Source: Thermoplasmata archaeon
GTDB taxonomy: Archaea; Thermoplasmatota; Thermoplasmata; Lutacidiplasmatales; UBA184
Direction of reading: 5' to 3'
Length of the DNA stretch: 34,422 bases
Assembly: GCA_021828665.1 (NCBI GenBank)
Contig: JAJZDH010000003.1
Location: 1-34,422 of the forward strand
The notes under the pieces are model-generated. The model worked only from the letters and a program-made list of their open reading frames with translations, did no database searches and was not told the DNA's origin. Each line of letters starts with the position of its first letter. Within the stretch, counting starts at the first letter, position 1. Shown here piece after piece: positions 3,297-22,860 of the stretch. Both the position numbers and the translations under genes were made by a program.

Positions 3297-3315
3297 GTCG
3301 GCACGGAGCGGATGA

Positions 3316-3405
3316 GAGTACTTGGGGCTTTGGCCGCCCGCTCCGGGATGGGGCGTCGGGCCACCGACGGCCCGGGACCGGACCGGCCGGGGCCTTTAGG
3401 TACTC
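3316..3405. promoter_or_regulatory. Divergent core promoters for fen (CCAAGTACTC, minus strand, 3316-3325) and PAC2 (TTAGGTACTC, plus strand, 3396-3405)
   Basis: These are the main AT-rich patches in the spacer. Each lies 19 nt before its start codon. Confidence 0.5.
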
Positions 3406-3424
3406 GTGGGGCGTGGGCCCGCCG

Positions 3425-5591: not shown

Positions 5592-6377
5592 TCACCCGAG
5601 ACGGGGGGTTCCCTTCCGACCGAAGGCGGCGACCGCCTTCGCGTTCTCGGGGCTGCCCCGGAGCGGATCCGCGAGGTCGAGCTCGAGGGCGAGCCCGTCG
5701 GCCAGGCTCAGGTCGAGGCCCCGGCGGACCGATTCGCGGGCGGTCCGTACGGCGCGCGGCGGGAGCTCGGCGATCCGTGCGGCGACCGCGCCGGCCTCCG
5801 CGCGCAGCCGTTCGAGGGGAACGATCCGGTTGATGAGTCCGAGCTCGTAGGCGCGGGCCGCGGAGATCGGTGCGCCGGTGAGCATCATCTCGAGCGCCAC
5901 GTTCGGCGGGAGGGCCCGGGGGAGCCGTTGGGTCCCGCCTTGGCCGGGGATGATGCCCCATCGCACCTCCGGCAGCCCGAACGTCGCGTTCGGGCTGGCC
6001 CATCGGAGATCGCAGGCGAGCGCGAGTTCGAGGCCGAGCCCGAGGCAGAGGCCGTTGATGGCGGCCACGACCGGCTTTCCCGGGTCGAAGTTGCGGGTGA
6101 GCCCGCCGAGGCCCGGTTCCCGCTGCCAGCGGGAGCGCCGTTCTCCCGGACGACCTTCCGCATAGAAATCGTCGAGCCGCTTCAAGTCGATCCCGGCCGA
6201 GAACGCCTTGGAGCCGGCCCCATCGAGGAGCCCTACCCGGAGACGGTCGTCGTCCCGGAGCCGGATCCAGGCGCGGACAAGGTCCGCGTGCATCTCGGGG
6301 TCGATGGCGTTCAGGCGCTCCGGCCGTTCCAGCGTCACGCAGAGCACGCCGCCCCGGGCCCGCACGCCGATCGGCAT
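5592..6377 (-). CDS. Enoyl-CoA hydratase/crotonase family protein, about 261 aa
   Basis: LERPERLNAI, AFSAGIDL, KPVVAAINGLCLGLGLELALACD, FGLPEVRWGIIPGQGGTQRLPR, with both catalytic Glu present. An ATTAAG box lies upstream of ATG 6377. Confidence 0.92.
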   Translation of the reverse strand: MPIGVRARGGVLCVTLERPERLNAIDPEMHADLVRAWIRLRDDDRLRVGLLDGAGSKAFSAGIDLKRLDDFYAEGRPGERRSRWQREPGLGGLTRNFDPGKPVVAAINGLCLGLGLELALACDLRWASPNATFGLPEVRWGIIPGQGGTQRLPRALPPNVALEMMLTGAPISAARAYELGLINRIVPLERLRAEAGAVAARIAELPPRAVRTARESVRRGLDLSLADGLALELDLADPLRGSPENAKAVAAFGRKGTPRLG

Positions 6378-9600: not shown

Positions 9601-10959
9601 ACCTCCGGCGACACCCGGTGGATCCTGCCGGGAACGTATTCGCTGGCGGTGACGACCGCCGCGGCGGACACGTTCGCCTTCTGGACCACGGCGGGCGGGG
9701 TCGGGGTGACCCCGGGCGGTCCCAGCGCCACCCTTTCCGTTTCGGGAGGGGGCACGATCTATGCGATCGGCGCCCCGTTCGTGGTGCGCAACGTCTCGGT
9801 GGCCCCGGCCGTGGTCGACGTGGGCCGGCCGATCCTCCTCGGGGCGGTCGCGACGGGGGCGGGGCCGTTCGCGTACGCGTGGTCCGGGGTCCCCGGCGGG
9901 TGTCCGACCGGCCCCCTCCGTTCCGGTGGAGTCTCCTGCACGCCGACGGTCCCGGGTACCTACGCCGTCCGGCTCACGGTCACCGATACGGAAGGGGCCT
10001 CCCTCGGCCTCGGCCCGTTCGGACTCACCGTCACGCCGCTTCCCCAGATCCAGCTCTTCTCGGCGAGCCCGTCGGCGTTCACCTTGGGCGTTTCCACGCT
10101 CCTCTCGGTCGTGACGGCGAACCCGCCCGGCGGGGTCCCTCCGCTCACCTTCGAGTATCCGGCGTTGCCGTCGGGGTGCGCCCCCGCGGACACCGCGGTG
10201 CTCGTCTGCACCCCCGACCGGGCCGGGAATTCCACGGTGACGGCCCGGGTGGTCGACGCCTCGGGCGCGGCTTCCGAGGCGAACCTCACGCTCGCCGTCG
10301 CCCCGCTTCCCCAGATTTCGTCGTTCGCCGCCTCCCGCCTGACGGTGACCGAGGGGGCGGTCACGAACCTCTCCGTCGCGTGGACCGGGGGGACGGGACC
10401 GTTGGGATGGGTCTACACCGACCTTCCGACCGGGTGCGTCTCGGAGGACGGGCCGCGCCTCGCCTGTTCTCCGAACGGCGCGGGGACCTTCTCGCCGACG
10501 GTCCGCGTCACCGACGCCGACGGCTTCGTGGCCGTCGCGACCCTTTCGCCCCTGGTGGTGAACCCGCCGCCGTCGATCCAATCGTTCGCGGCGAACCCGG
10601 ACCGGATCCCCCTCGGAAACACCACCGAGCTCACCGTCGCCGCCTCGGGAGGAACGGGGAACCTGAGCTACCGGTACACCGGTCTTCCCGGAGGATGCGG
10701 CCCGTCCGTCTCCCCGGCGCTCGCGTGCCGGCCCGCCGCGACGGGGAATTTCACCATCGGGGTGACCGTCACCGACGCCGACGGGATCGAGGCGGTCGCG
10801 TCGGTCCTCCTCGCCGTGACGACCCCCGTCCCGGCCTCCCCGACCCATGGCGGCGCCCCGGGCACCCCGTCGTGGGAGTGGGCGCTCCTGGGGGTCGCCG
10901 GGGTGGCGGCGCTCGCCGTCGGGATCGTGGTCGGGCTCCGGCGCCGCCGGGTCGCGTGA
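6601..10959 (+). CDS. Large membrane-anchored surface glycoprotein: signal/TM segment, Cys-rich beta domain, B-repeat-like modules, 4 Ig/PKD-like repeats, C-terminal TM
   Basis: Basic-then-hydrophobic N-region (RRRAAVPWTIAVVVGMLVSGL), about 30 N-x-S/T sequons, repeated LPxGC-x9-CxP motifs, and the C-terminal anchor WALLGVAGVAALAVGIVVGL-RRRR. Confidence 0.88.
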   Translation: MGASRTARGAPGRSRTRPDRPRRRAAVPWTIAVVVGMLVSGLGVAAGSGPGAATASSGSPADRPVAVGHRDATTPAVPGPTGRTPIDPPGPLAPGRSVSASATTGTTGVPPARFSSIRMGSFHLPGPHPQSWGDSAVPPGAPFAVGPVPSAPAGGPAASASENSSVFWSGHCAGLYPATGNATYYDGCVGHDEPGIQFYSPVPGSAGNITWNVTLPVDVGPSQNQSNLYVAVWFGMTLSDPLAWLDQCFLELQLYPDSSWSVPAVSGEWIGAAVAWQIEAATGYEDPCYYSPLYLHGLPTDGYFNMTGGDQLTVAMSGWENDPWGENISLIDRTQHTTSNLTLVDPYSNLPLDPAYSTNSYENGLQWTPGGEYPSVFAFETGHGRNPAYPTNTTFNYCAPGPPPATAANPDVPCPSYDPGSWSNDTAQPWRIEVPTFGTGTRTAPAAQVSFSQDLGGIDLDAGAPGCPGNLGSAYCSYPWYSYSCATHSFQFGATDYPGVSEDFGKYLEFATSAESNDLGFGYYPPTNFTIPTCGAASASVNLSIGGPSGGSVYFLSHDYGSAAVISGLAPGAYSLDALASGAVGFDRWAVTGALAVGSPTAAWTTLWVNGSGNLSASFQSSPPATVAVTFDDWGAAGSVAVLPSYLRITAGAALATAANGSSVALVPQIYGLLADAPPGYNFTHWAVNGSGAVIAASGLPTSWLLVDGAAARVTVTAWYAASSTFDSITVAVSGNGTVNLSGSSGSSFSETLRVGSYPVVADPGPGWSFQGWYAGGSAAIPDNGPSSNLTLENGSSYLYAYFGELPVAVLLEVAPAAGGTVSVIPGSFDGNNTTLELPVGTTSVGVRVATGYRFLGWTVNQSGAGWVESPGAAVSNFVVNRTVRLTADLVAAPLVTVSFRADPPAGGSIEFNFRTYGNGSQNTTANGSYALAFAPSPGYSEVGVGASGPLSVGSGVLQISGGGGVLTVDFQAIPPVPVAVTFVSEPVGAMFARIQGTAVTSGDTRWILPGTYSLAVTTAAADTFAFWTTAGGVGVTPGGPSATLSVSGGGTIYAIGAPFVVRNVSVAPAVVDVGRPILLGAVATGAGPFAYAWSGVPGGCPTGPLRSGGVSCTPTVPGTYAVRLTVTDTEGASLGLGPFGLTVTPLPQIQLFSASPSAFTLGVSTLLSVVTANPPGGVPPLTFEYPALPSGCAPADTAVLVCTPDRAGNSTVTARVVDASGAASEANLTLAVAPLPQISSFAASRLTVTEGAVTNLSVAWTGGTGPLGWVYTDLPTGCVSEDGPRLACSPNGAGTFSPTVRVTDADGFVAVATLSPLVVNPPPSIQSFAANPDRIPLGNTTELTVAASGGTGNLSYRYTGLPGGCGPSVSPALACRPAATGNFTIGVTVTDADGIEAVASVLLAVTTPVPASPTHGGAPGTPSWEWALLGVAGVAALAVGIVVGLRRRRVA
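9778..10818 (+). repeat. Four tandem Ig/PKD-like protein repeats of about 85 aa, each with an internal Cys pair
   Basis: YAWSGVPGGC..VSCTP..VTD; FEYPALPSGC..LVCTP..VVD; WVYTDLPTGC..LACSP..VTD; YRYTGLPGGC..LACRP..VTD. Confidence 0.85.
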
Positions 10960-10993
10960 CCTCGGCCCCGGGACCGGCCGCCCGGGCGGGACC

Positions 10994-11009
10994 GCCGCCG
11001 TTCGGCGGC
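10994..11009. terminator. GC hairpin between convergent genes (possible terminator or processing signal)
   Basis: GCCGCCG-TT-CGGCGGC inverted repeat, with no U-tract. Confidence 0.25.
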
Positions 11010-11049
11010 CGGCCCCGTGGCCGCCGATCGGTCCGCCCCCCGGGGACGG

Positions 11050-12072
11050 CTACGGAACGACGACCGTCCGGAAGCCGAGGCCCTGCCGGAGCCGCTCGGC
11101 CGCGCGACCGATCTCCTCGAGGGGCACGCGCCCGGTCACGACCGGCCCGAGCTCGATCCGTCCCGAGCGCACGAGCTCCACGACCCGCCGGTAGTCGGCG
11201 GGGCGGCATCCGAGCGAGCCCACGACGGTGTATTCGTGGAACATGACCCGGGGGGCGGGCAGGACCGCCGGCGCGGAGGAGTAGCCGAGGAGGCAAAGGC
11301 GCCCGCCGCGGCGCAGCAGGGAGAAGGCCATCTCGATCGTTTTCGGATGGCCCACCGCCTCGACGACCACGTCGGCCCCGTCGTGCCAGATCCGCCGGAG
11401 TTCCCGGGCCGGGTCCCCGGTCCGGGAGGGATTCACCGTCGCGGCGGCCCCGAGACGCCCCGCGACCTCGAGTTTCGCATCGCTCAAGTCGATGGCCACC
11501 ACCTCCGCGCCGGCCCGGTACGCGAACTGGACCACGTTGATGCCGACGCCGCCGCATCCGAGGACGGCGACCCGTTCGCCGGCCCGGACCTGCGCCCGGT
11601 GGACCACGGCGTGGTAGGGGGTGGTGAGCGCGTCGGAGATGACGGCGGCGAGCACCGGGTCGATCTCCCCGGGCAGGGCGACCAGGTCTTTCGCCGGCAC
11701 CACCACCATCTCCGCGAATCCCCCGTCCACGTGGTTGCCGACCATCTTCATCCCGGGGCAGATGTTCTCCCGCCCCGTCCGGCAAAAGTCGCATCGGCCG
11801 CAGGGGAGCACCGCCGGTACCAGCACCCGGTCGCCGGGGGCGACCCCCTCGACGCCGGGTCCCAGCGCATCGATCCGGCCCGAGATCTCGTGGCCGAGGA
11901 TGATCGGCGGCGGTTTCGCGGTGGCCACCCCGTGGTCCAGGTAGTGGAGATCGGTGTGGCAGAATCCGCAGGCGAGGACGGTCACCCGCACCTCGCCGGG
12001 ACCGGGTTCGGGCCGCCCGACCTCCTCCACCTGGAGACCCCGGGCCGGATCCCGGAGCACCGCCGCCCGCAC
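11050..12072 (-). CDS. had: 6-hydroxycyclohex-1-ene-1-carbonyl-CoA dehydrogenase (Zn-dependent MDR; Had/BzdX-like), about 340 aa
   Basis: CGFCHTDLHYLDHGVAT..PIILGHEISG, PAVLPCGRCDFC..GRENIC, SDALTTPYHAV, GCGGVG, GSLGC. GGAGGT lies before GTG 12072, and the gene is adjacent to the BCR genes. Confidence 0.8.
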   Translation of the reverse strand: MRAAVLRDPARGLQVEEVGRPEPGPGEVRVTVLACGFCHTDLHYLDHGVATAKPPPIILGHEISGRIDALGPGVEGVAPGDRVLVPAVLPCGRCDFCRTGRENICPGMKMVGNHVDGGFAEMVVVPAKDLVALPGEIDPVLAAVISDALTTPYHAVVHRAQVRAGERVAVLGCGGVGINVVQFAYRAGAEVVAIDLSDAKLEVAGRLGAAATVNPSRTGDPARELRRIWHDGADVVVEAVGHPKTIEMAFSLLRRGGRLCLLGYSSAPAVLPAPRVMFHEYTVVGSLGCRPADYRRVVELVRSGRIELGPVVTGRVPLEEIGRAAERLRQGLGFRTVVVP

Positions 12073-12680
12073 GATCGGTTCAACCTCCCCCGACGGAGCC
12101 GACCGGTGCCGGTCCGGGGAAGGGACGGCCGTTCCGTCCGTGGGGGAGGGGGCCCGGCGCCCGTCGGGGGCCCCCGGCGGGGGTCGGCGGCGCCCCAGCC
12201 GGCGGGCGTCCCGGCGCTCCCTCCCGACGCCGCGCGCCGGCGGCCGGACCCGGACCGCACGGGGACCGGCGCCCGGCCGGGAACCCTGGTGGGAGGATCT
12301 CCCGGCGGCCCCCCGCGATCCCGGGCGGCCACCTGCCGGGAACGCCCTCCGCCGCGGATCGGCCCGGGACGGCTCCGCGGAGGGGACCGGTCGCCCGTTC
12401 CCCGAAGGGAATCGACGCTCCGGGCCGGAGGCACCGGAGAGGGTGGGTCGTCCGAAGAGCCCCCCGGTCCGGGAGGTCCGGAGCTCGTCGACCGGCGGGC
12501 CCCCGGAAGTGGGCCGCGGACGGACGGGACGCCTCCGCCCTGCCGGAGGTCCCGGCGGGGCCGTGACGTCGCCGCCTATCGGACCCGGGATCCGGACGGC
12601 CCCCTCGGGCGTCGGGGTCCCGGGAACCGCCCCGTTCCCCCCCGCCCATCGGGCCCGCCTCCCGCACCGCTCCTCCGGGC

Positions 12681-13925
12681 TCAGGCGAACAGGATCGACT
12701 CGACGAAGGTCTCGAGCTGGAGACGGGACTGGTCGAGCGCCGAGGACCGTTCCTCGAACTCGAGGTGAAGGGACGGGATCTTCTCCCGGTCCAGGGCGGC
12801 CCGGTACAGGACGATGTCCTCGAGCGCCGGCTCGCAGAATTTCGCGGTCAGGAAGAGGACCGCCTGCGCCCCGGCCGCCGCGACCCTTCCGAGGATGGCC
12901 TCCCCCTTCGTCGTGGGGGTGGCCCGGACACCGATGTCCAGGGGGCTCTCGACGTAGGCGCGGGCGAGGTTCTCGAGCGGATCGCCGGTCGGGTCGACCG
13001 CCGGGTGCCACCGGTAAAGCTGCAGGAGCTCGTCGTCGACGACGTAGCAGCCCACCTGCTCGAGGAGATCGAGGAGATCGAGGGTCGGCTGCTCGCAGAA
13101 CGAACCCACGAGCAGCACCCGGACGGAGTCCTTGGGACGGGGCACCCGGTCCTCGACCGCGGCGCGCATCCGGCGCAGGAGCTCGAGGTGCACCTCGCGC
13201 GGGAGGAGCCCTCCCAGCCGCCGGACCAGGTACGACTCCGTGAGGGAGATCCGGGACGGGTCCCGCCGCTTGATCTCGGTCCAACGGGCGATCTCCGCCC
13301 GCTGCCGGTTGAACAGCTCGATGGAATCGGCCAACCGGTCGGGCCGGTACGGGGAGCCGCCGGCCGATTCCAGGACGCGGAGGAGGCGGCGGTACTCGGC
13401 GACCAGGAACGGCACGGTCGCCGCCGACCGGAAATTCTGGGGGAGGTGGAGCATGTGGGTGGCGGCGCCGGGCACCGCCCGGGGAAAGATCCCCTCCAGA
13501 TTGCGGCTGACGTCGCAGATGTACGGGAAGACGAACGCCCGGAACGGGGCGAGGCGGCCGGTCAGACCCATTTCGAGGGTGGACTTGCTGATGGAGCAGA
13601 GGAAGGATCCCAGCGCCGCGTCCGCGTGGCTGATCTCGATGGTCTCCCCGCCCCCGTGGAGCGCCACGGGCAGCATCCCCATCGCATGGATCAGTTCCTG
13701 CGGGGTGTAGACGGGGAAGCATCCGACGGCCGACCGGCCGGACCGGTTCCAGGCCCGCACGGTGGGCCAGGTCGCGTCGGCTAGGACGGCCCGGGCGAGC
13801 CGGTCGACGGCTTCGAGGGATGGGGCCCGGGCGAACTCTTCGAAGGAGTCGCTCACCTCGAGGGGCGGGGCGCCCTCGGGATCGGCGGCGGCGGCGGCCC
13901 CTTCGGAGGAGGCGCGGACGGCCAT
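12681..13925 (-). CDS. bcrC: Benzoyl-CoA reductase subunit C (BcrC/BzdN; 2-hydroxyacyl-CoA dehydratase family)
   Basis: VGCFPVYTPQELIHAMGMLP..GGG, SFLCSISKSTLEMGLTGRL, FPYICDVSRNL, LPQNF, GSFCEQP, KFCEPAL, QLETFVESI. Confidence 0.85.
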   Translation of the reverse strand: MAVRASSEGAAAAADPEGAPPLEVSDSFEEFARAPSLEAVDRLARAVLADATWPTVRAWNRSGRSAVGCFPVYTPQELIHAMGMLPVALHGGGETIEISHADAALGSFLCSISKSTLEMGLTGRLAPFRAFVFPYICDVSRNLEGIFPRAVPGAATHMLHLPQNFRSAATVPFLVAEYRRLLRVLESAGGSPYRPDRLADSIELFNRQRAEIARWTEIKRRDPSRISLTESYLVRRLGGLLPREVHLELLRRMRAAVEDRVPRPKDSVRVLLVGSFCEQPTLDLLDLLEQVGCYVVDDELLQLYRWHPAVDPTGDPLENLARAYVESPLDIGVRATPTTKGEAILGRVAAAGAQAVLFLTAKFCEPALEDIVLYRAALDREKIPSLHLEFEERSSALDQSRLQLETFVESILFA

Positions 13926-13928
13926 GCC

Positions 13929-14747
13929 TCACCCCTCGACCGCGAGGACCGCGGGGGGCCGACCGCCGAGCTTCTCGAGCCGCGCGTGGCCCAGGATCGC
14001 CGCCCCGAGCGCGGCGGCGTGGTGGGCGCGGGGGTCGGCGACGACCGGCACCCCCGCCGTCCGGGAGAGCGCCTCGACCATGGCCTCGCTGTGGACCAGG
14101 CCGCCGACGAGCGCGACCTCCGGTTGGATTCCCGCATGACGCATCAGGATGTACGCCCGCTGCGCCAGCGACAGGAAGACCCCCATCAGGATGTCGGGGA
14201 GCGGGACCTCCTCGGCCACGCTGTTGATGATCTCCGTCTCGGCCAGGACGGCGCAGACGCTGGAGATCATCTTCGGGTGGGCCGCGGCGAGCGCCTTCGG
14301 CGCCATCTCCTCGAGCGGGACCTGGAGGTACTTCGCGCACCGGTCCACGAACCGGCCCGCCCCGGCGGCGCACTTCTCGTTCATCTTGAACCGGACGACC
14401 CGGCCGGACTCCGAGATGGACATCGCCCGGGAGGACTGGCTGCCGATGTCGACCACATGCCGGGTCCCGGGGTGGAGGAAGGCGGCGCCGCGGGCCGAGG
14501 CGGTGATATCGCTCACCTGCAGGTGGCGGTCGGGGTAGGCGTAGCGGGCCCCGCCGGTCGTGCAGAGGTAGTCGACCTCCCCCGGCAGCAGGTTGGCCTC
14601 CTCGACCATCGTTTCGAGGATCTTCCGGCCGGCCGCGACGGGGTTGCCCCGGGTCGGCAGGAGGGCGGTGGCGAGGATGCGGCGGCCCTCCTCGAGGAGG
14701 ACCCCTTTGGTGGAGCCGGAACCAAGGTCGAGGCCACCCGAGATCAT
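13929..14747 (-). CDS. bcrD: Benzoyl-CoA reductase ATPase subunit D (BcrD/BzdP; BadF/BadG/BcrA/BcrD family), about 272 aa
   Basis: GLDLGSGSTK, TTGG, VDIGSQ, FKMNEKCAAGAG, ISSVCAVLAETEIIN. ATGA overlap with the upstream gene. Confidence 0.82.
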   Translation of the reverse strand: MISGGLDLGSGSTKGVLLEEGRRILATALLPTRGNPVAAGRKILETMVEEANLLPGEVDYLCTTGGARYAYPDRHLQVSDITASARGAAFLHPGTRHVVDIGSQSSRAMSISESGRVVRFKMNEKCAAGAGRFVDRCAKYLQVPLEEMAPKALAAAHPKMISSVCAVLAETEIINSVAEEVPLPDILMGVFLSLAQRAYILMRHAGIQPEVALVGGLVHSEAMVEALSRTAGVPVVADPRAHHAAALGAAILGHARLEKLGGRPPAVLAVEG

Positions 14748-15532
14748 GCGGAGATCCCCTCCGTCCGCTCGCGGCCGTGGAGCGCCGCCCCGATCGCCCC
14801 CACGTACTGCGAGAGCGGGCTCACGTTGACCGGGAGCGCGAGACGCCGCTCCAGGGTCCGGACCATCCCCCCGTTCCGGGAGACGCCCCCCGTGAAGGTG
14901 ACCTCGGGCTCCACGCCGACCCGTTGCAGGAGCGAGAGCGAGCGGCCGACGATGCCGCCGTACAGGCCGGCGAGGATATCCGGCGGCTCCTTGCCCCGGG
15001 CCACGTAGGAGGCCACCTCGGACTCCGCGAAGACCGTGCAGGTGTTCGTCACCTTCACGGGGTGCCGGGCCCCCTCGGCGAGGGCCCCGATCTCGCTCAC
15101 ATCGAAACCGAGGGCGCCCGCGCACACATCGAGGAACCGGCCGGTCCCGGCGGCGCACTTGTCGTTCATCGCGAAATCCACCACCTCCCCGCGGGGGTCC
15201 ACCTTGATTGCCTTCGTGTCCTGGCCGCCGATGTCGAGGACGACCCGCGTGCCGGGGAAGAGGAAGTGGGCTCCCTTGGCGTGGCATCCGATCTCGGTCA
15301 CGGTGAACCGGCCGAAGGCGACCTTGAACCGGCCGTAGCCGGTCCCGGTGACCACCGCCACCTCGTGGCGTTCCCGGCCGGCCTCGGCCAGCGCCTGCGC
15401 CAGCGCCCGCTCGGCGTCCTTCACCAGTTCGACGCCGACGGGGGCCAGCGACTTGCCGACGATCCGGTCTCCCTCGAGGAGCACGCATTTCGCCGTCGTG
15501 GACCCGATGTCCACGCCCGCCACGAGCGTCAC
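14744..15532 (-). CDS. bcrA: Benzoyl-CoA reductase ATPase subunit A, short BzdQ/HgdC-like form, about 262 aa
   Basis: AGVDIGSTTAK, TGYGR, TEIGCH, LDIGGQDTK, MNDKCAAGTGRFL, CTVFAESE, TGGV. GTGA overlap with the upstream gene. Confidence 0.82.
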   Translation of the reverse strand: MTLVAGVDIGSTTAKCVLLEGDRIVGKSLAPVGVELVKDAERALAQALAEAGRERHEVAVVTGTGYGRFKVAFGRFTVTEIGCHAKGAHFLFPGTRVVLDIGGQDTKAIKVDPRGEVVDFAMNDKCAAGTGRFLDVCAGALGFDVSEIGALAEGARHPVKVTNTCTVFAESEVASYVARGKEPPDILAGLYGGIVGRSLSLLQRVGVEPEVTFTGGVSRNGGMVRTLERRLALPVNVSPLSQYVGAIGAALHGRERTEGISA

Positions 15533-16809
15533 GGTGCCCCCCGCAGGGGTTCCGCCGCGCCCCCCCGGCGCCGATCGAGCGACTCGAAGAACGCATCCAT
15601 CCGGTTCTTGATCTGGGCGGGGGCGAAGTACCGTGGATCCTCGTGATCCGACTCGATGTAGAGCGTGGGGATCCCGAGGTCGTGGATCAGCCGGTCCCGC
15701 AGGTCGCCCTGGCCGGCGGTGAACGACCGGCAGGACTTGATGCCGTGGATGAGCACGGCATCGGCGGCGAACTCCCGGACGTACTCCTCGATGAGCTTGC
15801 GTCGCAGCGGCCACGACTGGTTCACGTACGCCCCGAGGGCGTATTCGGCGATGCTCTCGAGCGGGCGGGCCGGGTCGTGGAGGAACCCGCGGTCGAAGAG
15901 GCCGCCCACCTTCGGATAGGTGGCGGCCACCGACACCGCGCCCCACTTCCGGAAGAAGTCCCAGAAGGTCCGGTAGTTCGGGTACGGCGGCACCCCCTCG
16001 ACGACGAGGCGGACCTTCTCCTCCGGCACGGGGTAGGCGCCGGACCGGACCCGCTCGTCGACCTCGGCGTTCAACGTCGCGTAGAACCGGGCGGCCTCCT
16101 CGGTCCCGCGCAGGACATTGATGGGGAACATGTGGAACACGGCCTCGAAGTAGGCTTCGATGGGCGAGGGACGGCGCGCGCCGGAGGCCAGGTACCGGAC
16201 CCACCCCTCCTCGGCGGCCCGGGAGTGGGCCAGGGTGCGCCGCAACGACGCCGGGTCGAACCGCCGATCGGAGGCCTTCTCCAGGAAGGCGATGAATTCG
16301 TTCAGCTGGGCGACGATGTACCCGAGGTCCTCGGTGGGGGGCCGCTCGTCCCGGAGGTACGGGACGTCCAAGAGGAAGAGCGGGCAGCCGAACTTCTCGG
16401 CCAGCGCCTCCCACCACTTCACGTAGACGTAGCAGCCGGAGAAGCTGCAGACGAGGAGGTCGGGCGGCGGGATCCGGCCGAACGGCGTCTGGCCGCCGAG
16501 CTGCTGGAGCCCGAGATCGTTCTTGACGTATCCGCACACGTCGAGGCCGTACCCCTGCGCCTCGGCCTGGAGGATGTTGGGGAGCGAGACATGCTTGATG
16601 GCGCAGTTCAGGGCGACGATCTCGGGGAAGACCACCTCGTAGCCGAACGAACGGACGATCTCCGTGAGGTTGCCGCCCACCAGCATGTAGGCGACCGGCC
16701 GCTTCGCTCCCCCGGCCGTGGCGAGATCGGCGTAGTAGGCCTCGATCATCTCGCGTTGCCGGTCCCGCGCGGAGACCAGGAAGGAGGGCTCCTCGGTGGA
16801 TGCGCCCAT
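15529..16809 (-). CDS. bcrB: Benzoyl-CoA reductase subunit B (BcrB/BzdO), about 426 aa
   Basis: GNLTEI, FPEIVAL, DVCGYVKND, IPPPDLL, GCYVYVKWWEAL, VEGVPP, YPKVGG, IKSCRSF, ESDHEDPRYFAPAQIKNRMDAFFE. Confidence 0.86.
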   Translation of the reverse strand: MGASTEEPSFLVSARDRQREMIEAYYADLATAGGAKRPVAYMLVGGNLTEIVRSFGYEVVFPEIVALNCAIKHVSLPNILQAEAQGYGLDVCGYVKNDLGLQQLGGQTPFGRIPPPDLLVCSFSGCYVYVKWWEALAEKFGCPLFLLDVPYLRDERPPTEDLGYIVAQLNEFIAFLEKASDRRFDPASLRRTLAHSRAAEEGWVRYLASGARRPSPIEAYFEAVFHMFPINVLRGTEEAARFYATLNAEVDERVRSGAYPVPEEKVRLVVEGVPPYPNYRTFWDFFRKWGAVSVAATYPKVGGLFDRGFLHDPARPLESIAEYALGAYVNQSWPLRRKLIEEYVREFAADAVLIHGIKSCRSFTAGQGDLRDRLIHDLGIPTLYIESDHEDPRYFAPAQIKNRMDAFFESLDRRRGGAAEPLRGAP

Positions 16810-16829
16810 CGATCCCCCCCTCGCCGGGA

Positions 16830-17960
16830 CTACGGTGGCGGGGCCGGTCCCGCTCCGGCTCCGTCGGACAACGGGGCGCCGCACCGGCCGCAGTAGCGGA
16901 ACAGTTCGGGGAGTCCGGTCTCCCCGCACCGGCCGCAGGACCGGAGCGGGGCGCCGTGGAGGAAGTCGGCCTCCCCGCCCCGCGCGAGAGCGCGTCGCAA
17001 CTCGGCGACCCGGGCCGGTCGCTTGTCGACGAAGGCGTGCATCCCATCGAACGGTTCGGCGGTGGCGAAGTGGAGGGCGAGCCATTCCTGGGCATGCCCG
17101 ACCGTCTGGTTCCAGGCGAACTCCTTCCAGAAGTTGGCCTGCGCCTTCGTGTACCGGAGGCACTCCGGATACATCCCGAGCAGTCTCTGGGCGAGGGCAT
17201 CGACCGCCTCGTCGAGCCGCCCCAGGTCGATCCGGTACCCCCGCTCCTCCTTCTGCGCCCAGCCGATCTCCTCGGCCGTCGGCGCCGCCACCCACTCTCC
17301 GTTGCACACCACCGAGGGGACCACGGAGTTGACGAGCCCCCACTCCGCGGCCCGGGCGGCCGGGACCCGTTCGTTCGTCATCAGCATCGAGCGCGCCCTC
17401 CGGTCCCCGACGGCGAGCGGCAGCCACTGGGTCGCCCCGCCCGCGGCGACCGAACCGACCCCCACGCCGACCTGCCCGAGGTAGATGTGCGCGGCGGCGA
17501 TGGAGAGGTCGCAGGCGAGGTGGAGCTCGTTGCCCCCGCCGACGGCGATCCCGTTGAGGCGGGCGATCACCGGCTTGCCGCAGCGCAGGATGGACTCGAC
17601 CGCCTCGCGGAAGACGGCCATGTACTTCCAGTAGTCGTGGGGACGCTCGAGGAAGCGGCTCGCGTACTCCTTCACATCCCCACCGGTGCAGAACGCCCGG
17701 GAGCCCGCGCCCGTGAGGACGATCACCCCGATCCGATCGTCGCGAGAGGCGTTCCCCATCGCCCGGGTGAGTTCCCGGAGGGTGGCGGTGCTGTAGGCGT
17801 TGTGCGCCTCCAGTCGTTGGAGCGTGATCCGGACCACCGATTCGGACCGCTCGTACCGGAGGTCGAGGTATCCCCCGGATTCGTCCGCCACCGGGGAGAT
17901 CGGGTCGGGGCGGGCGGAGCCCAGGGCGGCGGAGCCGTTCGCGCGCGCCCGGACCGACAC
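16830..17960 (-). CDS. oah: 6-oxocyclohex-1-ene-1-carbonyl-CoA hydrolase (Oah/BamA/BzdY-like crotonase) with a C-terminal CxxC-x12-CxxC extension
   Basis: NAYST, AFCTGGDVKEYA, KPVIARLNGIAVGGGNEL, GSVAAGGATQWLP, IDLGRLDEAV, YPECLRYTK, AWNQ..WLALH. Start is GTG 17960 or GTG 17891. Confidence 0.8.
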   Translation of the reverse strand: MSVRARANGSAALGSARPDPISPVADESGGYLDLRYERSESVVRITLQRLEAHNAYSTATLRELTRAMGNASRDDRIGVIVLTGAGSRAFCTGGDVKEYASRFLERPHDYWKYMAVFREAVESILRCGKPVIARLNGIAVGGGNELHLACDLSIAAAHIYLGQVGVGVGSVAAGGATQWLPLAVGDRRARSMLMTNERVPAARAAEWGLVNSVVPSVVCNGEWVAAPTAEEIGWAQKEERGYRIDLGRLDEAVDALAQRLLGMYPECLRYTKAQANFWKEFAWNQTVGHAQEWLALHFATAEPFDGMHAFVDKRPARVAELRRALARGGEADFLHGAPLRSCGRCGETGLPELFRYCGRCGAPLSDGAGAGPAPPP

Positions 17961-18541
17961 CGCTTCCGCCCCGGGAGGCCATCGGGTCCGGTTCGGAAAA
18001 TCGTTCGCCCTGACCGGTGCGGGACCGGCGGGCCGGGCGATCGCCCCGGTCGGTGCGGCCGCTCCCGGCCCCCGAGGGATTCCGGCGGCCCCGCGGGCGT
18101 CGGCTCGCCGCCTCTTCCGACGGCTCCGCGCTCCGCCACCGGTCGCCCGCGGAGCCCGCGGCGCGCGGAGCGGTCGGTCGGATGCCTTCTCGCTCCGGGC
18201 GATCGCCCCCTCCTCGGGCCCTCGCCGACCGTACCGGTACGGGAAGGCGCGAGGATCCCCTCCGCGGGCGCCTCGTCCCCCGATCGCCCGTGGCGGTCGT
18301 CGGGCCCCCCATCGCCCCCCCCCGCGGGCCCCCGGACCGTCGGAGCACCACGGAACGGAACGATCCGGAGCGCCTCCCCCGGGCGTCGCCATCGTCCCCC
18401 CTCCCCTTGACGGACGTCGGCCGGGCCGGCACGCCGAACCCAAGGTCCGCCGTCCGAAGGGACCCCCCGTGGCCGGGGTTCGGGGTCGGGCGGAGGAACG
18501 GCGGCTTGGGCCGGCAAGCTCCAAGTACTCGGAGGGCGGAG

Positions 18542-19438
18542 ATGGCGGCACCGATGGAGCCCCTCCCGCCGCGGCCGCTCGCATCGTCGGTGCCGGGGCC
18601 GCGGGAACTGCTCGAGATCGCCCGGAAGGCCGCCCGGGCCGGCGGTCGTCGGACTCTCGAATATTTCGGGGGGCGGCTCCCGGCGGAGACGAAGTCCGAC
18701 GGCTCCCCGGTGACCCGGGCGGACCGGGCGTCGGAGGCGGCGATCCGGGCCGTCCTCCGGCGGGAGCGTCCCCACGACGGCGTCACCGGCGAGGAAGGAG
18801 GGGTGCGGCCGGGACGCTCCCCGGTCCACTGGATCGTGGACCCGATCGACGGGACGAAGTCGTTCGTCCACGGGGTGCCGCTGTACTCCGTGCTCGTGGC
18901 GGCGGAGGTGGACGGGGAGCCCACCGTGGGCGTCATCCACATGCCCGCCCTCGGCGAGACGGTCGCGGCGGCCCGGGGCCTCGGATGCCGCTGGAACGGC
19001 CGGGCCGCTCACGTGTCGCGAACGGAGCGGCTCTCCGAGGCGACCGTCCTCACCACCTCGGTCCGGGGGTTGGAGGCCCGGGGGGTGCCGTTTCGACGCC
19101 TCGCCCACCGCTCGCGGTGGCAGCGGGGGTGGGGCGACGGCTACGGGTACGCGCTCGTCGCCACCGGACGGGCCGATGCGATGATCGATTCCGCGGTCCA
19201 GATCTGGGACGCGGCGCCGCTCCTTCCCATCCTCGCGGAGGCCGGCGGACGGTTTTCCGATTGGACCGGGCGGGCCTCGATCCGGGGCCCGGACGCCGTG
19301 GGGACGAACGGGCTCCTCCACGAAGAGATGCTCCGCCTGCTCGGGCGCGAGCGCCTTCCCCCGTCGGGGCGGACCCGGGCCCACCCCGCTCCGGGCGGCC
19401 CGCGCCGGCGGGGCCGGACCGATCGGCCTCCCCGGTGA
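18542..19438 (+). CDS. hisN: Histidinol-phosphate phosphatase, inositol monophosphatase family
   Basis: ETKSDGSPVTRADRASE, GEEGG, WIVDPIDGTKSFVHGVPLY, RGWGDGYGYALVATGRAD, WDAAP. It lies next to a his operon whose HisB lacks a phosphatase domain. Alternative ATG at 18554. Confidence 0.85.
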   Translation: MAAPMEPLPPRPLASSVPGPRELLEIARKAARAGGRRTLEYFGGRLPAETKSDGSPVTRADRASEAAIRAVLRRERPHDGVTGEEGGVRPGRSPVHWIVDPIDGTKSFVHGVPLYSVLVAAEVDGEPTVGVIHMPALGETVAAARGLGCRWNGRAAHVSRTERLSEATVLTTSVRGLEARGVPFRRLAHRSRWQRGWGDGYGYALVATGRADAMIDSAVQIWDAAPLLPILAEAGGRFSDWTGRASIRGPDAVGTNGLLHEEMLRLLGRERLPPSGRTRAHPAPGGPRRRGRTDRPPR

Positions 19439-19510: not shown

Positions 19511-20218
19511 CTAGGCGCCCGGCGCCGTCGATCCGCCGGCCGGATCCGGCGGGGCGGAGCCTCCTCCGGGGGCGGCCGGATCCCCGGTGGCGGGCCGCCG
19601 CCGACGGAGTTCCCGAAGGACCTCGTCGAAGGAGACCCCGCGGGCCTCCAGGAGGACCAGCGTGTGGAAGAGGAGGTCGGCGGCTTCCCACGCGATGGGA
19701 GCCCGGTCCGAACCCTCGGCTGCCAGGATGAGCTCGATCGCCTCCTCCCCCACCTTCCGGCGCAGCCGCGCCGGATCCCGGAGCAGTCCGGCCACATAGG
19801 ATCCGTCGGGGGCCCGCCGGGCCCGGTCCGCGACCACCGCTCGGAGCTCCTCGAGGATCGCATACGGGGGTTCGGGGCCGGGAAAGCAGCTTCCGGCCCC
19901 GGTGTGGCAGGCCGGCCCGAGCGGAAGCACCCGGGCGAGCAGCGCGTCCCGGTCGCAGTCCCATTGGAGGTCGACGACCCGCTGCACGTTCCCGGAACTC
20001 TCCCCCTTGTGCCAGAGCGCCCGCCGCGACCGCGACCAGAAGTGCATCTCCCCGGTCTCCCGGGTCCGCTCCAGGCTCTCGTCCGAGGCGTACGCGAGCA
20101 TGAGGACCTGGCCGGTCTCTGCATGCTGGACCACGACCGGAACGAGGCGCGGTCCCGTCCCCCCGGCCCCGCCCGGGGCGGCCCGGTCGGATCCGCCATC
20201 GGCCGGCTCCTCCGTCAT
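19511..20218 (-). CDS. hisIE: Bifunctional phosphoribosyl-AMP cyclohydrolase / phosphoribosyl-ATP diphosphatase
   Basis: [49 protein letters not shown], then [19 protein letters not shown]. Confidence 0.93.
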
Positions 20219-20985
20219 CCGGCCTCCTCCGAGCGCACCGGGAGGCGGTGCGCCCGCAGGTAGGACTTGATCGAGGGAATCGAGACGGCGCCGTCGTGGA
20301 GCCGGGAGGCGAGCAACGCCGCGTCGGCCAGTCCCTCCCCGAAGAGCCGTCCCATGTCCTCGAACGCCCCGAACCCTCCCGACGCGATCAGGGGCCGCTC
20401 GAGCACCCCCCGCAGCGCCCGGTAGAGGGCCCGGTCGTACCCCGCCTGCGTTCCGTCGGCGTCGATGCTCGTCACCAGGAACTCGCCGGCGCCGGCCGTC
20501 TGCCCCGCCGCGGCCCAGGCCACCACCGAGGTTCCGGTCCGCTCGCGCCCGCCGCGGAGCGCCACCTCCCACCCGTCGGCCGTCCGCGCGGCGTCGATGG
20601 CGAGGACGGCGCACTGCGTCCCGTACTGGGCCGCCGTCTCGGTGAGGAGCCCGGGGCGGCGGAACGCGGCCGTGTTCATCGCCACCTTGTCGGCGCCGTG
20701 GCCGAGGAGGTCGCCGACCTCCTGGAGGCTCCGCACGCCGCCGCCCACCGTCAGCGGGACGGAGAGCGCTCCGGCCACGTCCCGGACCACGCCGAGGTCC
20801 GGCCCCCGTCCCCGAACGGAGGCCTCGATGTCCAGGAGCACGAGCTCATCGGCCCCCTCGGCCTCGTACCGGACGGCGGCCGCGACGGGATCGCCCGCGT
20901 CCCGGAGATCCTCGAACCGGACCCCCTTGACGACCCGTCCGTCCCGGAGGTCGAGGCAGGGGATGATCCGGAGCGCGACCATCAC
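20215..20985 (-). CDS. hisF: Imidazole glycerol phosphate synthase, cyclase subunit
   Basis: [51 protein letters not shown]. Start is GTG 20985 or ATG 20982. Confidence 0.96.
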
Positions 20986-21542
20986 CGGAGCTCCTCCCAG
21001 GCGACCTGGCCCTTCGTGGAGAGTTCCCGGGCCGCCGGCGCGGTCGCCCGGTCGAAGGCGAGGCCGAACGCCTTGAAGGTGGCCTCGAGGAGGTGGTGCG
21101 CCTCGCCCGGCCGGATCGTCCTCTGGTGGAGGGAGAACGGGGCTTCGAGGACCAGCGACCGGAGGAGGTGTTCCCCGAGGTTGTCGGCCGGGAGGTCGGC
21201 GCGGTAGTACGGCCGATCGACCAGGTCGAGGACGACCTGGACGAGCACCTCGTCCATCGGCACCGTCGCCTCGCCGAACCGGGCGATCCCGCGCTCGGGA
21301 ATCGCCCGGCGCAGCGCCCGGCCCAGCGCGAGGGCGCTGTCCTCGGCCACGTGGTGGGGATCGTCGCCGCGGGTGCGGAGCCGGATATCGGTGCCCGAGT
21401 ACCGGGCGAAGGCCCCCAGCAGGTGGACCAGGAAGCCGTCCGGGTGCTCCCAGTCGAGCCGTCCCCGGGCGTGGAGCCGGACCGAGACCTCGACCCGGGT
21501 CTCCCGCGTCGTGCGCCGGAGCCGTGCCGCCGGGCCGGTCAT
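20982..21542 (-). CDS. hisB: Imidazoleglycerol-phosphate dehydratase (monofunctional)
   Basis: RTTRET, HHVAED, VPMDE, HHLLEATFKAFG, STKG. Confidence 0.93.
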   Translation of the reverse strand: MTGPAARLRRTTRETRVEVSVRLHARGRLDWEHPDGFLVHLLGAFARYSGTDIRLRTRGDDPHHVAEDSALALGRALRRAIPERGIARFGEATVPMDEVLVQVVLDLVDRPYYRADLPADNLGEHLLRSLVLEAPFSLHQRTIRPGEAHHLLEATFKAFGLAFDRATAPAARELSTKGQVAWEELR

Positions 21543-22246
21543 CGGACCGCCTCCCGGAGCCGATCCGGGCCCGGTCCCTCGCGGTAGAGGGCGAGGCCGA
21601 CCACCGCCGCGTCGAACCCGGCCGCGGCGAGGGTCCGGAGATCCTCCGGCCCGGCGACCCCCCCCGCCGCGATCCGCTCGTGCCGGCAGCGGGCCACCAT
21701 CTCTCCCAGCGGATCGCCGACGCCCTCCATCCGGCCCTCGGCGACGGTATTCGTGAAGAGGACCCCTCCCAGGGGCAGGTCGTTCGCGGTCCTCACGATC
21801 TCCCCGAGCGGCACGGCCAGGGACTCGGTCCGGCCCGCGAGGAGCGCCCGCCGGTCCCGGTGGTCGATCCCGAGGAGGATCCGTCCGGGGTGGCGCCGGG
21901 CCATCGCGACGAGCCACGGGGGATCCCGGAGGGCGCGCGTGGAGACGATGGCCCGGGAAGCCCCGGCCGCGAGGAGCTCGCCGATCCGATCCGTATCCCG
22001 GAGACCACCGCCCACCTGGACCGGCACCTCCACGCTGCGGAGGATGCGGAGGAGGAGCTCCCGGTTGTCCCCCCGGCCCAGGGCCGCGTTGAGGTCCACC
22101 ACCTGGAGCCGCCGCGCGCCCCGGTCCGCCCACGCCCGGGCGGTGGCGACCGCATCCTCGGCCACGGTCGTGAGCTGTTCCGGCGGACCGCCCCGCAGGA
22201 ACCCCACCCGGCCATCCCAGAGGTCGAGGGAAGGGATCACGATCAT
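21539..22246 (-). CDS. hisA: ProFAR isomerase
   Basis: MIVIPSLDL, VVDLNAA, VQVGGGLR, LGID, FTN..EG, AAGGV, VGLALY. Confidence 0.92.
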   Translation of the reverse strand: MIVIPSLDLWDGRVGFLRGGPPEQLTTVAEDAVATARAWADRGARRLQVVDLNAALGRGDNRELLLRILRSVEVPVQVGGGLRDTDRIGELLAAGASRAIVSTRALRDPPWLVAMARRHPGRILLGIDHRDRRALLAGRTESLAVPLGEIVRTANDLPLGGVLFTNTVAEGRMEGVGDPLGEMVARCRHERIAAGGVAGPEDLRTLAAAGFDAAVVGLALYREGPGPDRLREAVR

Positions 22247-22860
22247 CCGGCTACCCCCTCCGCCCACTCGAGGAAGGCGGCCAGGAAGGCGGCCCCCGCC
22301 CGTCCGCTCCGCTCCGGGTGGAACTGCACCCCGACCACGGATCCGGCGCGGACGACCGCGGCGAACTCGATCCCATGGAAGGAGGTCGCCACCGTCCCCG
22401 CCGTTCCGGCGGGCAGGGCGTAGGAATGGGCGTAGTACATCTCGGGATCGACCGTCGGCCCGCCGAGCCCGAGCAGCATGGGATCGGGGGTCCGCCGGAG
22501 CGGCGACCAGCCCATGTGCGGCAGGAGCGGTCCGGGGAGACGGACCACCTCGCCGCGGAGGAGCCCCAGACCCTGCCCCGGTCCCTCCTCGCTCGCCCCC
22601 GCCAGGACCTGGAGGCCGGCGCAGATCCCCAGGAGCGGCGTTCCCGCGCGCACCCGCCGCACGAGCTCGGCCCGGAGCGGCTCCACCCCCCGCGCGATCG
22701 CCGGGAAGGAGGCGACCCCGGGGAGGACGAGGATCCCGGCCCCGGCGATCGCCTCCGGGTCCCGGGAGATCCTCGGCGGGCGTCCCAGCCGTTCGAACGA
22801 CCGGGCCAGGCTGAAGAGATTGCCGGTCCCGGTGTCGACGATGAGGATCGGCCCCTTCAT
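22243..22860 (-). CDS. hisH: Imidazole glycerol phosphate synthase, glutaminase subunit
   Basis: GNLFS, LPGV, LGICAGLQ, PHMGW, YYAHSY, QFHPERSG. Confidence 0.95.
   Translation of the reverse strand: MKGPILIVDTGTGNLFSLARSFERLGRPPRISRDPEAIAGAGILVLPGVASFPAIARGVEPLRAELVRRVRAGTPLLGICAGLQVLAGASEEGPGQGLGLLRGEVVRLPGPLLPHMGWSPLRRTPDPMLLGLGGPTVDPEMYYAHSYALPAGTAGTVATSFHGIEFAAVVRAGSVVGVQFHPERSGRAGAAFLAAFLEWAEGVAG

Follow-up and report, generated by a model that had tools for sequence, protein, structure and literature searches.

A putative class I-type aryl-CoA reductase cassette with an empty dch slot in a Thermoplasmata archaeon

Class I ring reductases catalyze the step that commits aromatic compounds to anaerobic breakdown, at a high cost in ATP, and their biochemistry is known mainly from a few Betaproteobacteria and also from Ferroglobus. 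A cluster of six genes resembling such a reductase and its partner enzymes lies at positions 11050-17960 of a contig from a Thermoplasmata archaeon (GenBank JAJZDH010000003.1, assembly GCA_021828665.1). It raises two questions: whether the genes encode a ring reductase at all, and whether they make their host an anaerobic degrader of aromatic compounds. A sequence-only reading of this DNA had answered the first question with a class I benzoyl-coenzyme A (benzoyl-CoA) reductase and the second with a probable yes. The present analysis covers the entire 34,422-bp contig (C10 of the assembly, called the window below) and the rest of its genome, which is 1.62 Mb in 176 contigs, 97.8% complete and free of detected contamination, and 72.5% in guanine plus cytosine (GC). 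We consider it likely, with a probability of about 75%, that the cassette encodes a functional ATP-dependent class I-type aryl-CoA reductase, most likely for benzoyl-CoA, together with two of the three ring-opening enzymes, and that it represents an archaeal subtype related to the Thauera-type benzoyl-CoA reductase (BCR) and to the methylbenzoyl-CoA reductase (MBR) type.

The cassette genes and their family matches

DNA of 72.5% GC carries many spurious long open reading frames (ORFs), which fill all frames here, and therefore the coding frames were chosen by codon-position GC. One minus-strand frame per gene stood out across 11050-17960, with GC of 0.9-0.99 at the third codon position against 0.4-0.55 at the second. 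The first gene of the operon, at 16830-17960, encodes an oah-like crotonase of 376 aa (Pfam ECH_1, 7e-47) whose C-terminus is a zinc-ribbon-like CxxC...CxxC tail. It is followed by a bcrB-like gene at 15529-16809 (426 aa; HGD-D, 1e-58) for the catalytic subunit that is presumed to bind the substrate and the active-site [4Fe-4S] cluster, a short-form bcrA-like ATPase gene at 14744-15532 (262 aa; BcrAD_BadFG, 4e-63), a second, bcrD-like ATPase gene at 13929-14747 (272 aa; BcrAD_BadFG, 5e-45), and a bcrC-like gene at 12681-13925 (414 aa; HGD-D, 7e-63) for the second subunit of the catalytic module, the presumed carrier of the electron-transfer cluster. The last gene, at 11050-12072, encodes a had-like zinc alcohol dehydrogenase of 340 aa (ADH_N and ADH_zinc_N, about 1e-30). 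The four reductase proteins are called B, A, D and C below.

The cassette thus holds two HGD-D subunits and two different BcrAD_BadFG ATPases in four consecutive genes, as expected of a class I reductase. With the start codons chosen, the oah-like gene and B are separated by a 20-nt spacer, B and A as well as A and D overlap by 4 nt, and D and C lie 3 nt apart. The sequence-only reading had described precisely this co-oriented oah-bcrB-bcrA-bcrD-bcrC-had order with overlapping or abutting reductase genes, and both codon-position GC and the Pfam matches reproduced it exactly on the minus strand; the gap of 608 nt between C and the had-like gene had gone unmentioned. All six ORFs are intact with strong codon-position bias.

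For every cassette gene, a model of the benzoyl-CoA pathway was the best NCBIfam match. B scored 341 bits against BcrB (TIGR02260, cut-off 486.55), compared with 153 for HadB and 101 for BzdO, and C scored 252 bits against BcrC (TIGR02263, cut-off 421.15), compared with 173 for HadC, 113 for a double-cubane model and 79 for BzdN. The score of A against BcrA was 182 bits (cut-off 578) over model positions 211-429 of 432 only, and its activase domain matched TIGR00241 at 266 bits; D scored 145 bits against BcrD (cut-off 312.85). The had-like protein matched dearomat_had (TIGR03201) at 238 bits (cut-off 338.65), followed by Tdh at 200. The oah-like protein matched dearomat_oah (TIGR03200) at 198 bits (cut-off 464.45), followed by MenB at 150 and BadI at 137; its match to the Oah model was largely confined to the model's N-terminal half and was best at positions 40-224 of 360. 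The cut-offs of the Bzd-type models were missed as well (453.8 for BzdN, 448.6 for BzdO, and 380.2 for BzdQ, where the score was 161 bits).

All four subunits had their best structural match in the 3-methylbenzoyl-CoA reductase MbdONQP. B matched MbdO at 220 bits, ahead of HadB (134) and BzdO (105); C matched MbdN at 235 bits, ahead of HadC (166) and BzdN (92); A matched MbdQ at 274 bits, ahead of HadI (213) and HgdC (211); and D matched MbdP at 178 bits, ahead of MbdQ (168) and HadI (165). The subunit sizes are also similar, with 262 aa in A and 269 aa in MbdQ, 272 and 273 aa in D and MbdP, 426 and 445 aa in B and MbdO, and 414 and 388 aa in C and MbdN. The BcrA model has 432 positions, of which the first ~200 have no counterpart in A.

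Ring reductase or dehydratase

The water-bearing [4Fe-4S] cluster of BzdO is described as held by Cys95, Cys128 and Cys380, with Glu65 and His131 as neighboring proposed acid/base residues (PMC11971306). In B, the corresponding residues Cys92, Cys126 and Cys360 align with these three cysteines, respectively, and are invariant in all 21 aligned sequences. A Pro-Glu pair of B (Glu63) is at least 90% conserved; the BzdO alignment stopped short of Glu65. C has six cysteines in regions comparable to those of BzdN, as candidate counterparts. In the two ATPases, the cysteines of the motifs 'NDKCAAGTG'/'NEKCAAGAG' and 'TCTVFAESE'/'VCAVLAETE' align with cysteines of MbdQ, MbdP and HadI, and presumably bind the cluster, an assumption we take from the HgdC literature. 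Both ATPases retain most of the nucleotide-binding motifs of MbdQ, MbdP and HadI, with a degenerate second phosphate motif in D (DIGSQS). Since the dehydratases share the cluster cysteine features, these residues indicate an intact enzyme rather than its chemistry.

A search of 1.84 billion cluster representatives with B returned 225 proteins at E ≤ 1e-30, and 80 full-length representatives were scanned against NCBIfam. Two of them, P0131 (44% identical to B) and P0130 (47%), exceeded the BcrB cut-off with 815 and 630 bits, and B aligned with these two at 346-350 bits. Nine more had BcrB as the best match below the cut-off, and most others were HadB-like. Trees were built for B, and the other three subunits were ranked by their model and PDB scores. 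In a first tree of 47 rows chosen from ~270 proteins, 29 BcrB-like rows were separated from 18 HadB-like rows with a Shimodaira-Hasegawa-like approximate likelihood ratio test (SH-aLRT) value of 100, and B was among the BcrB-like rows. A second tree, also of 47 rows (among them 33 derived from the 92 loci described below and 13 proteins, with five HadB-like rows as the outgroup), likewise placed B apart from the HadB-like rows at an SH-aLRT of 100. The window B belonged to a 10-row clade (SH-aLRT 99) of Thermoplasmata proteins and Heimdall-, Hod-, Kari- and Thorarchaeal proteins. The sister of this clade (96) comprised four rows, from Caldarchaeum, from Methanomassiliicoccales and from a second type, 44% identical, that occurs in the same family as the window genome. 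Further separate clades held betaproteobacterial and Ktedonobacteria sequences, Bacteroidota, Acidobacteria and Planctomycetota sequences, and, in a small group, locus L041 from a South China Sea Thermoplasmatota bin. As judged from these trees, B is on the reductase side of the split between reductases and dehydratases, in an archaeal subclade outside canonical BcrB.

The alternative that the genes encode a 2-hydroxyacyl-CoA dehydratase with its activator, serving amino-acid fermentation, draws on the common superfamily (Pfam HGD-D and BcrAD_BadFG) and on several database records that call the homologues '2-hydroxyacyl-CoA dehydratase'. The solved dehydratase HadBC and its activator HadI (PDB 3o3m, 4eht) share their fold family and their three-Cys cluster site with the window proteins; HadB and HadC are also the second-best models, and HadBC and HadI are the second-best structural matches of B, C and A. 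However, B is in another clade, split from the HadB-like proteins in both trees, and the reductase models and structures outscore the dehydratase ones for all four subunits. A single activator gene is the mark of the dehydratases, whereas the cassette has two distinct ATPase genes. The neighbors also differ, with had-, oah- and, in relatives, dch-like genes conserved next to the reductase and no CoA-transferase or 2-hydroxyacid dehydrogenase found in the window. We therefore regard a dehydratase as very improbable, and the preference for an aryl-CoA reductase already expressed in the sequence-only reading was borne out, with a tree for B and score rankings for the other subunits.

Comparison with the characterized enzymes suggests a reductase related to, and distinct from, each of them. 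Like the Thauera-type BcrCBAD with Dch, Had and Oah (TIGR02259-02263, TIGR03189, TIGR03200, TIGR03201), the cassette combines two HGD-D with two BcrAD_BadFG proteins, a Had of the zinc alcohol dehydrogenase type and a crotonase-type ring hydrolase, and B is 44-47% identical to the representatives above the BcrB cut-off. Unlike the Thauera genes, which are ordered C-B-A-D as also seen in bacterial loci, those of the window follow the order B-A-D-C; the N-terminal ~200 BcrA-model positions are missing from A, the oah-like protein has its Cys-rich tail and matches mainly one half of its model, and the cassette has neither a dch nor a ferredoxin gene. MbdONQP (PDB 9g87, 9gai, 9gal, 9gba; deposited names) resembles the window enzyme in its short alpha subunit and carries Phe at the position of BzdO His131, where the window has Tyr; its match scores to B and C are only moderate. 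Our literature search found no paper on these structure entries. Betaproteobacterial loci 34-37% identical to B form a clade, putatively of the MBR type, apart from that of the window. The Bzd-type reductase BzdNOPQ of Aromatoleum (PDB 8s02) shares the superfamily, the three-Cys [4Fe-4S] site and the ATP-dependent two-module design, and an [8Fe-9S] double cubane is bound by six cysteines of its BzdN (PMC11971306). Its similarity to the window proteins is much weaker, and His131 of BzdO is not kept. The enzyme of Ferroglobus placidus is of the Bzd type. This cultured archaeon is described as having benzoate-catabolic genes including a benzoyl-CoA reductase (PMC6500515). The class I label first given to the cassette is thus right as to the kind of enzyme; the enzyme is neither of the canonical Thauera type nor of the Bzd type.

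The same machinery might have another physiological substrate, such as a substituted (methyl-, hydroxy- or halo-) benzoyl-CoA or another aryl- or alicyclic-CoA, as in the MBR-type enzymes, in which case the catabolic route would be another or a narrower one. For each of the four subunits, the closest enzyme of solved structure reduces 3-methylbenzoyl-CoA, the subunits are nearer in size to MbdONQP than to canonical reductases, B groups outside canonical BcrB in a clade of its own, all model scores are below the equivalog cut-offs, and no benzoate-CoA ligase was found in the genome. On the other hand, B is closer to the canonical BcrB representatives (346-350 bits) than to MbdO (220 bits), and the linked had- and oah-like genes best match models of the benzoyl-CoA pathway. 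Sequence alone cannot assign the substrate range, and we consider a substrate other than benzoyl-CoA rather unlikely.

Conserved linkage and the empty dch slot

The gene neighborhood was compared across 92 loci, 13 from genomes of relatives and 79 from named records, with the Asgard loci left out of the gene-order comparison. The close, window-type loci were defined by a B at least 70% identical (n = 20; L037 duplicates L029 and was counted once). The oah-B-A-D-C order was present in all 20, as far as the contigs reach, and a had-like gene followed bcrC in each of the 16 that span the bcrC-had interval. Every window-type locus and the four loci of the sister clade had the order B-A-D-C, whereas the other bacterial and archaeal loci examined had C-B-A-D. 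Among 71 more distant loci, 21 had both a had-like and an oah-like gene, four had only the former, seven only the latter, and 39 had neither within the fetched stretch. The loci with both included Acidobacteriota, Bacteroidota, Ktedonobacteria, Planctomycetota and Caldarchaeum. At L067, Had and Oah adjoin a BcrB above its cut-off, with Oah at 488 bits (cut-off 464) and Had, on a partial stretch, at 335 bits (cut-off 338.65). At L060, a BcrB and a Had that both exceed their cut-offs share one stretch with a window-type oah-like gene; its product scores 203 bits, is 56% identical to that of the window and ends in the same kind of Cys-rich tail. This tail (window 16830-16990, CxxCG...CGxCG) is conserved in L035, L103, L037, L025, L043, L060 and L042, and is common to archaeal and bacterial relatives. 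The linkage to had and oah, pointed out from the window alone, is therefore conserved well beyond this lineage, and its recurrence is the strongest argument that these enzymes produce a cyclic dienoyl-CoA and act on it further.

The cassette acts as a unit of its own with a patchy distribution. Its flanks in six relatives (38 proteins) consist of unrelated housekeeping genes, with no ligase and no ferredoxin among them, and the reductase is present in 14 of 24 same-family genomes and in one of seven other genomes of the same genus.

The second cassette type, also B-A-D-C with a B 44% identical, was seen in same-family genomes at G015:C26, G010:C37 and G020:C64 (L032-L034). Two of these loci extend far enough to show genes resembling dch and had alongside it, on the opposite strand, and G015 carries both cassette types. 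BcrB-like genes 45-52% identical to B were also observed in many soil and groundwater bacteria (L042-L113; more than 600 stretches matched), among them Acidobacteriota, Chitinophagales/Bacteroidota, Ktedonobacteria, Rokubacteria/Methylomirabilota, Binatia and Planctomycetota. Several of these bacterial groups are usually regarded as aerobes.

In 15 of the 16 close loci spanning the interval, a dch-like crotonase of 255 aa is encoded between bcrC and had. For the two of these proteins that were tested, Dch was the first or second NCBIfam match, at 131-144 bits against a cut-off of 292.5. Among the close loci the gene is missing only in the window and in L036, where the gap is 75 bp. The window has instead a spacer of 608 bp (12073-12680) with 81.6% GC and no coding periodicity, whose ORFs had no family match. 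The spacer is also present in independent contigs.

Three explanations for the spacer were considered and rejected. Against a decayed dch, it showed no similarity to the dch-like gene of the relatives at the protein or the DNA level: tblastn of three dch-like proteins found only the oah-like and enoyl-CoA hydratase genes on the contig and generic crotonases elsewhere, and blastn aligned only the end of bcrC and the start of had. It is unique in the genome, with just weak GC-rich matches elsewhere, which speaks against a repeat or mobile element. A structured RNA is not supported either, with no Rfam match in the whole window and a folding energy like that of shuffled sequences (z = 0.19).

Another crotonase gene is a candidate stand-in for dch. 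It lies at 5592-6377 on the minus strand and encodes a generic enoyl-CoA hydratase (ECH_1; EchA19/DpgD-like at ~210 bits, below the cut-off). In 14 close loci, orthologues 57-76% identical adjoin the cassette at its oah end, and in L035, L103, L036 and L037 the gene calls place the orthologue immediately upstream of oah in divergent orientation. Next to it, at 4797-5549 on the plus strand, is a transcription regulator (HTH_10, 3e-18) that is also cassette-linked in relatives: orthologues 64-70% identical flank the cassette in L035 and L103, and more distant HTH_10 genes flank other loci. In L035 and L103, the closest relatives, the regulator and the divergent crotonase lie directly upstream of oah. 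Compared with these two loci, the cassette of the window is inverted relative to the regulator-crotonase pair. Between the linked crotonase and had, where L035 and L103 have nothing, sits a gene (6601/6955-10959, plus strand; 1,334-1,452 aa depending on the start) for a probable surface protein with PKD domains and InlB B-repeats (Flg_new_2). Both sides are covered in 15 loci, the window included. The two crotonases occur together in ten of them, the dch-like one occurs alone in three and the divergent one alone in two (L036 and the window), and each locus has at least one. This pattern fits partial redundancy of the two crotonases; the loci are related and few.

Two loci of one genus (L025:6332-8262 and L028:6138-8077) have genes for a U32-family peptidase-like protein and a hemerythrin in place of the divergent crotonase, and L025 also has a chorismate mutase gene upstream of oah.

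With substrate, ATP coupling, electron donor and hydration step predicted by homology, the cassette would work as follows. Reduced ferredoxin would load the [4Fe-4S] cluster held between A and D, and ATP hydrolysis would drive the electrons onward to the B/C module. The ring would be reduced to a cyclic dienoyl-CoA at the three-Cys [4Fe-4S] cluster of B. Since the dedicated dch-like gene is missing, hydration of the diene would fall to the crotonase at 5592-6377 or to another one. The had-like dehydrogenase would then oxidize the hydration product, and the oah-like crotonase would cleave the ring to give 3-hydroxypimelyl-CoA, which could enter beta-oxidation.

The loss of dch and the inversion could also be taken to mean that the cassette is a remnant in this genome, which would not support growth on aromatics and would be drifting towards loss, and such a drift would fit its uneven occurrence across the family. 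The window and L036 are the only loci with an empty dch slot, which is filled in the other 15 close loci that span it, the large PKD-repeat gene is interposed, just one of seven other same-genus genomes has the reductase, and no dedicated ligase was found. Against this, the six ORFs are intact with their codon-position bias, the catalytic cysteines are kept, and the cassette-linked crotonase is still nearby. In pairwise comparison with L103 and L035, the ratios of nonsynonymous to synonymous substitution rates (dN/dS), which average over the whole path to the relatives, lay within 0.10-0.25 for each of the eight cassette genes; the cassette genes are under purifying selection. Moreover, the same cassette allele, with few differences, was seen in several samples. 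A remnant is therefore improbable, and we prefer a functional reductase cassette.

The host genome and the limits of the pathway

Parts of the stretch were held by 19 public runs from nine studies, the best holders being mine-drainage and soil metagenomes. Contigs from foreign samples bridge 10500-14202 (X2 record 9, 13.2 kb; X3 record 17, 12.6 kb) and 16601-18600 (X2 record 16; X3 record 23). These regions run from the PKD-repeat gene through had, the spacer and bcrC into bcrD, and from the 5' end of bcrB through oah to hisN. The bridging contigs, from three runs besides the likely source run and from the assemblies of two other studies, differ by a handful of single bases; short assembly joints with sides of ~20 nt, from other contigs, were not counted as bridging. 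GC is uniform along the contig, and the B tree agrees with the genome family, with 73-83% identity to same-family genomes. Since independent assemblies have the same arrangement, GC is uniform and the B tree follows the family, chimerism is excluded for practical purposes, a check that the sequence-only reading had called for.

The surroundings are archaeal and of a housekeeping kind. Genes for a RibD_C reductase, a fused formiminotransferase-cyclodeaminase (FTCD_N, FTCD, FTCD_C), FEN1/XPG and a PAC2 proteasome-assembly chaperone, all ordinary archaeal housekeeping genes, occupy 68-4237. Directly upstream of the cassette and divergent from it is a hisN-type histidinol-phosphatase gene (18506-19438, plus strand; TIGR02067, 255 bits against a cut-off of 275), followed by a complete histidine biosynthesis operon on the minus strand (hisG, hisD, hisC, hisH, hisA, hisB, hisF, hisIE; 19511-25977). 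The window also holds two HTH_10 regulators, MFS transporters and an M13 peptidase. The nearest homologues of B (71-86% identity) are named Thermoplasmata or Euryarchaeota archaeon in their source records, in agreement with the Thermoplasmata-like setting seen from the letters alone.

The genome was searched for selected families that could activate the substrate or supply electrons. As first noted from the sequence, the window has no AMP-ligase and no ferredoxin motif. Elsewhere, the genome has two 2-oxoacid:ferredoxin oxidoreductase alpha-type genes (POR_N) and a small 2x[4Fe-4S] ferredoxin-like ORF on C99, which are candidates for the electron supply that the sequence-only reading had suggested looking for. 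It also has one family-III CoA-transferase, six acyl-CoA dehydrogenase matches, and three AMP-ligases, which are FadD-like, an acetate-CoA ligase and PRK06155-like. A cassette-specific CoA ligase was sought among the family's genomes, and the two ligases tested did not co-vary with the cassette.

Several observations weigh against a functional ring reductase cassette with the role proposed here. All six cassette proteins fall below their NCBIfam equivalog cut-offs, and B lies outside the clades that hold above-cut-off BcrB sequences, including those of L060 (636 bits) and L067 (680 bits). Both B trees came from 'quick' searches with SH-aLRT support only and with long-branch warnings. His131 of BzdO aligns with Tyr129 of B; the same position is Phe in MbdO, and therefore the replacement argues only against Bzd-type chemistry. 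A dch-like gene is absent, the best genome-wide matches being generic crotonases of 30-38% identity, and the best match to the Dch equivalog model scored 95 bits against the cut-off of 292.5, so that the ring-cleavage set of Dch, Had and Oah is neither complete nor above its cut-offs here. None of the three AMP-ligases reached the benzoate-CoA ligase cut-off of 375, with 235 bits for the FadD-like, 182 for the acetate-CoA and 222 for the PRK06155-like ligase. The FadD-like ligase is present in all 24 and the PRK06155-like ligase in 21 of the 24 same-family genomes, compared with 14 for the reductase; both are core to the family with or without the cassette, and therefore neither is cassette-specific. 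A heme-copper oxidase subunit I (COX1) gene matched at 484 bits (C51:7975-9336), and no molybdopterin oxidoreductase (Pfam PF00384) was found in the 97.8%-complete genome. Finally, the literature search on this archaeal clade yielded only genome-based predictions, and we know of no assayed member.

The oxidase and the missing molybdopterin oxidoreductase mean that an anaerobic respiratory lifestyle is not evident. By its gene content, the organism can probably respire oxygen, and no anaerobic respiration of the nitrate or DMSO (dimethyl sulfoxide) type is evident. For an oxygen-sensitive, ATP-dependent ring reductase, a host that has an oxidase and in which no molybdopterin enzyme was found is unusual. 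The earlier conclusion that the organism probably degrades aromatics anaerobically is accordingly not established, given the scores below the cut-offs, the absence of a dch-like gene and of a recognizable benzoate-CoA ligase, and this respiratory profile. It is conceivable, though unlikely, that the B-A-D-C enzymes, which occur in these Thermoplasmata and in the examined loci of Caldarchaeum, Methanomassiliicoccales and the second same-family type, are a distinct ring-reductase subtype, used by oxygen-respiring or microaerobic archaea with no anaerobic respiration in evidence, and that its substrate and product routing differ from the textbook pathway. In this genome, a crotonase other than Dch might then hydrate the diene, and a non-canonical CoA ligase or a CoA-transferase might activate the substrate.

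Genome-based reports of similar gene sets are available. A 2019 paper described class I bcr genes and linked oah, dch and had genes in Thermoplasmata and Bathyarchaeota metagenome-assembled genomes (PMC6472368), and a 2022 paper described the same sets in 'Ca. Yaplasmales' Thermoplasmatota (PMC9239135); they are also described in Asgard archaea (PMC8163825, 2021; bioRxiv 10.1101/763623). The window differs in that its host comes from mine drainage or soil and has an oxidase. Asgard proteins ~60% identical to the window B form its sister group, and the South China Sea locus L041 has the C-B-A-D order and belongs to another clade. Since bcr sets have already been published from Thermoplasmata, the present cassette is a further, well-preserved case. 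What the present analysis adds is the placement in a distinct archaeal B-A-D-C subclade, the MBR-like subunit format, the empty dch slot, and the mismatch between an oxygen-sensitive enzyme type and an oxidase-bearing host with no recognizable substrate-activating ligase.

For annotation, the window calls for caution, as the pathway is incomplete in this genome despite its reductase-like genes. The genes are real and reductase-like, yet a dch-like gene and a recognizable ligase are missing, and therefore a metabolic claim needs more than the presence of bcr genes. For the family, the results point to a related but distinct enzyme set that is stably inherited in high-GC Thermoplasmata of mine drainage and soil. 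If the enzymes are active, a wider range of organisms and habitats than the cultured models imply would dearomatize compounds of the benzoyl-CoA type, and this range would include hosts that respire oxygen.

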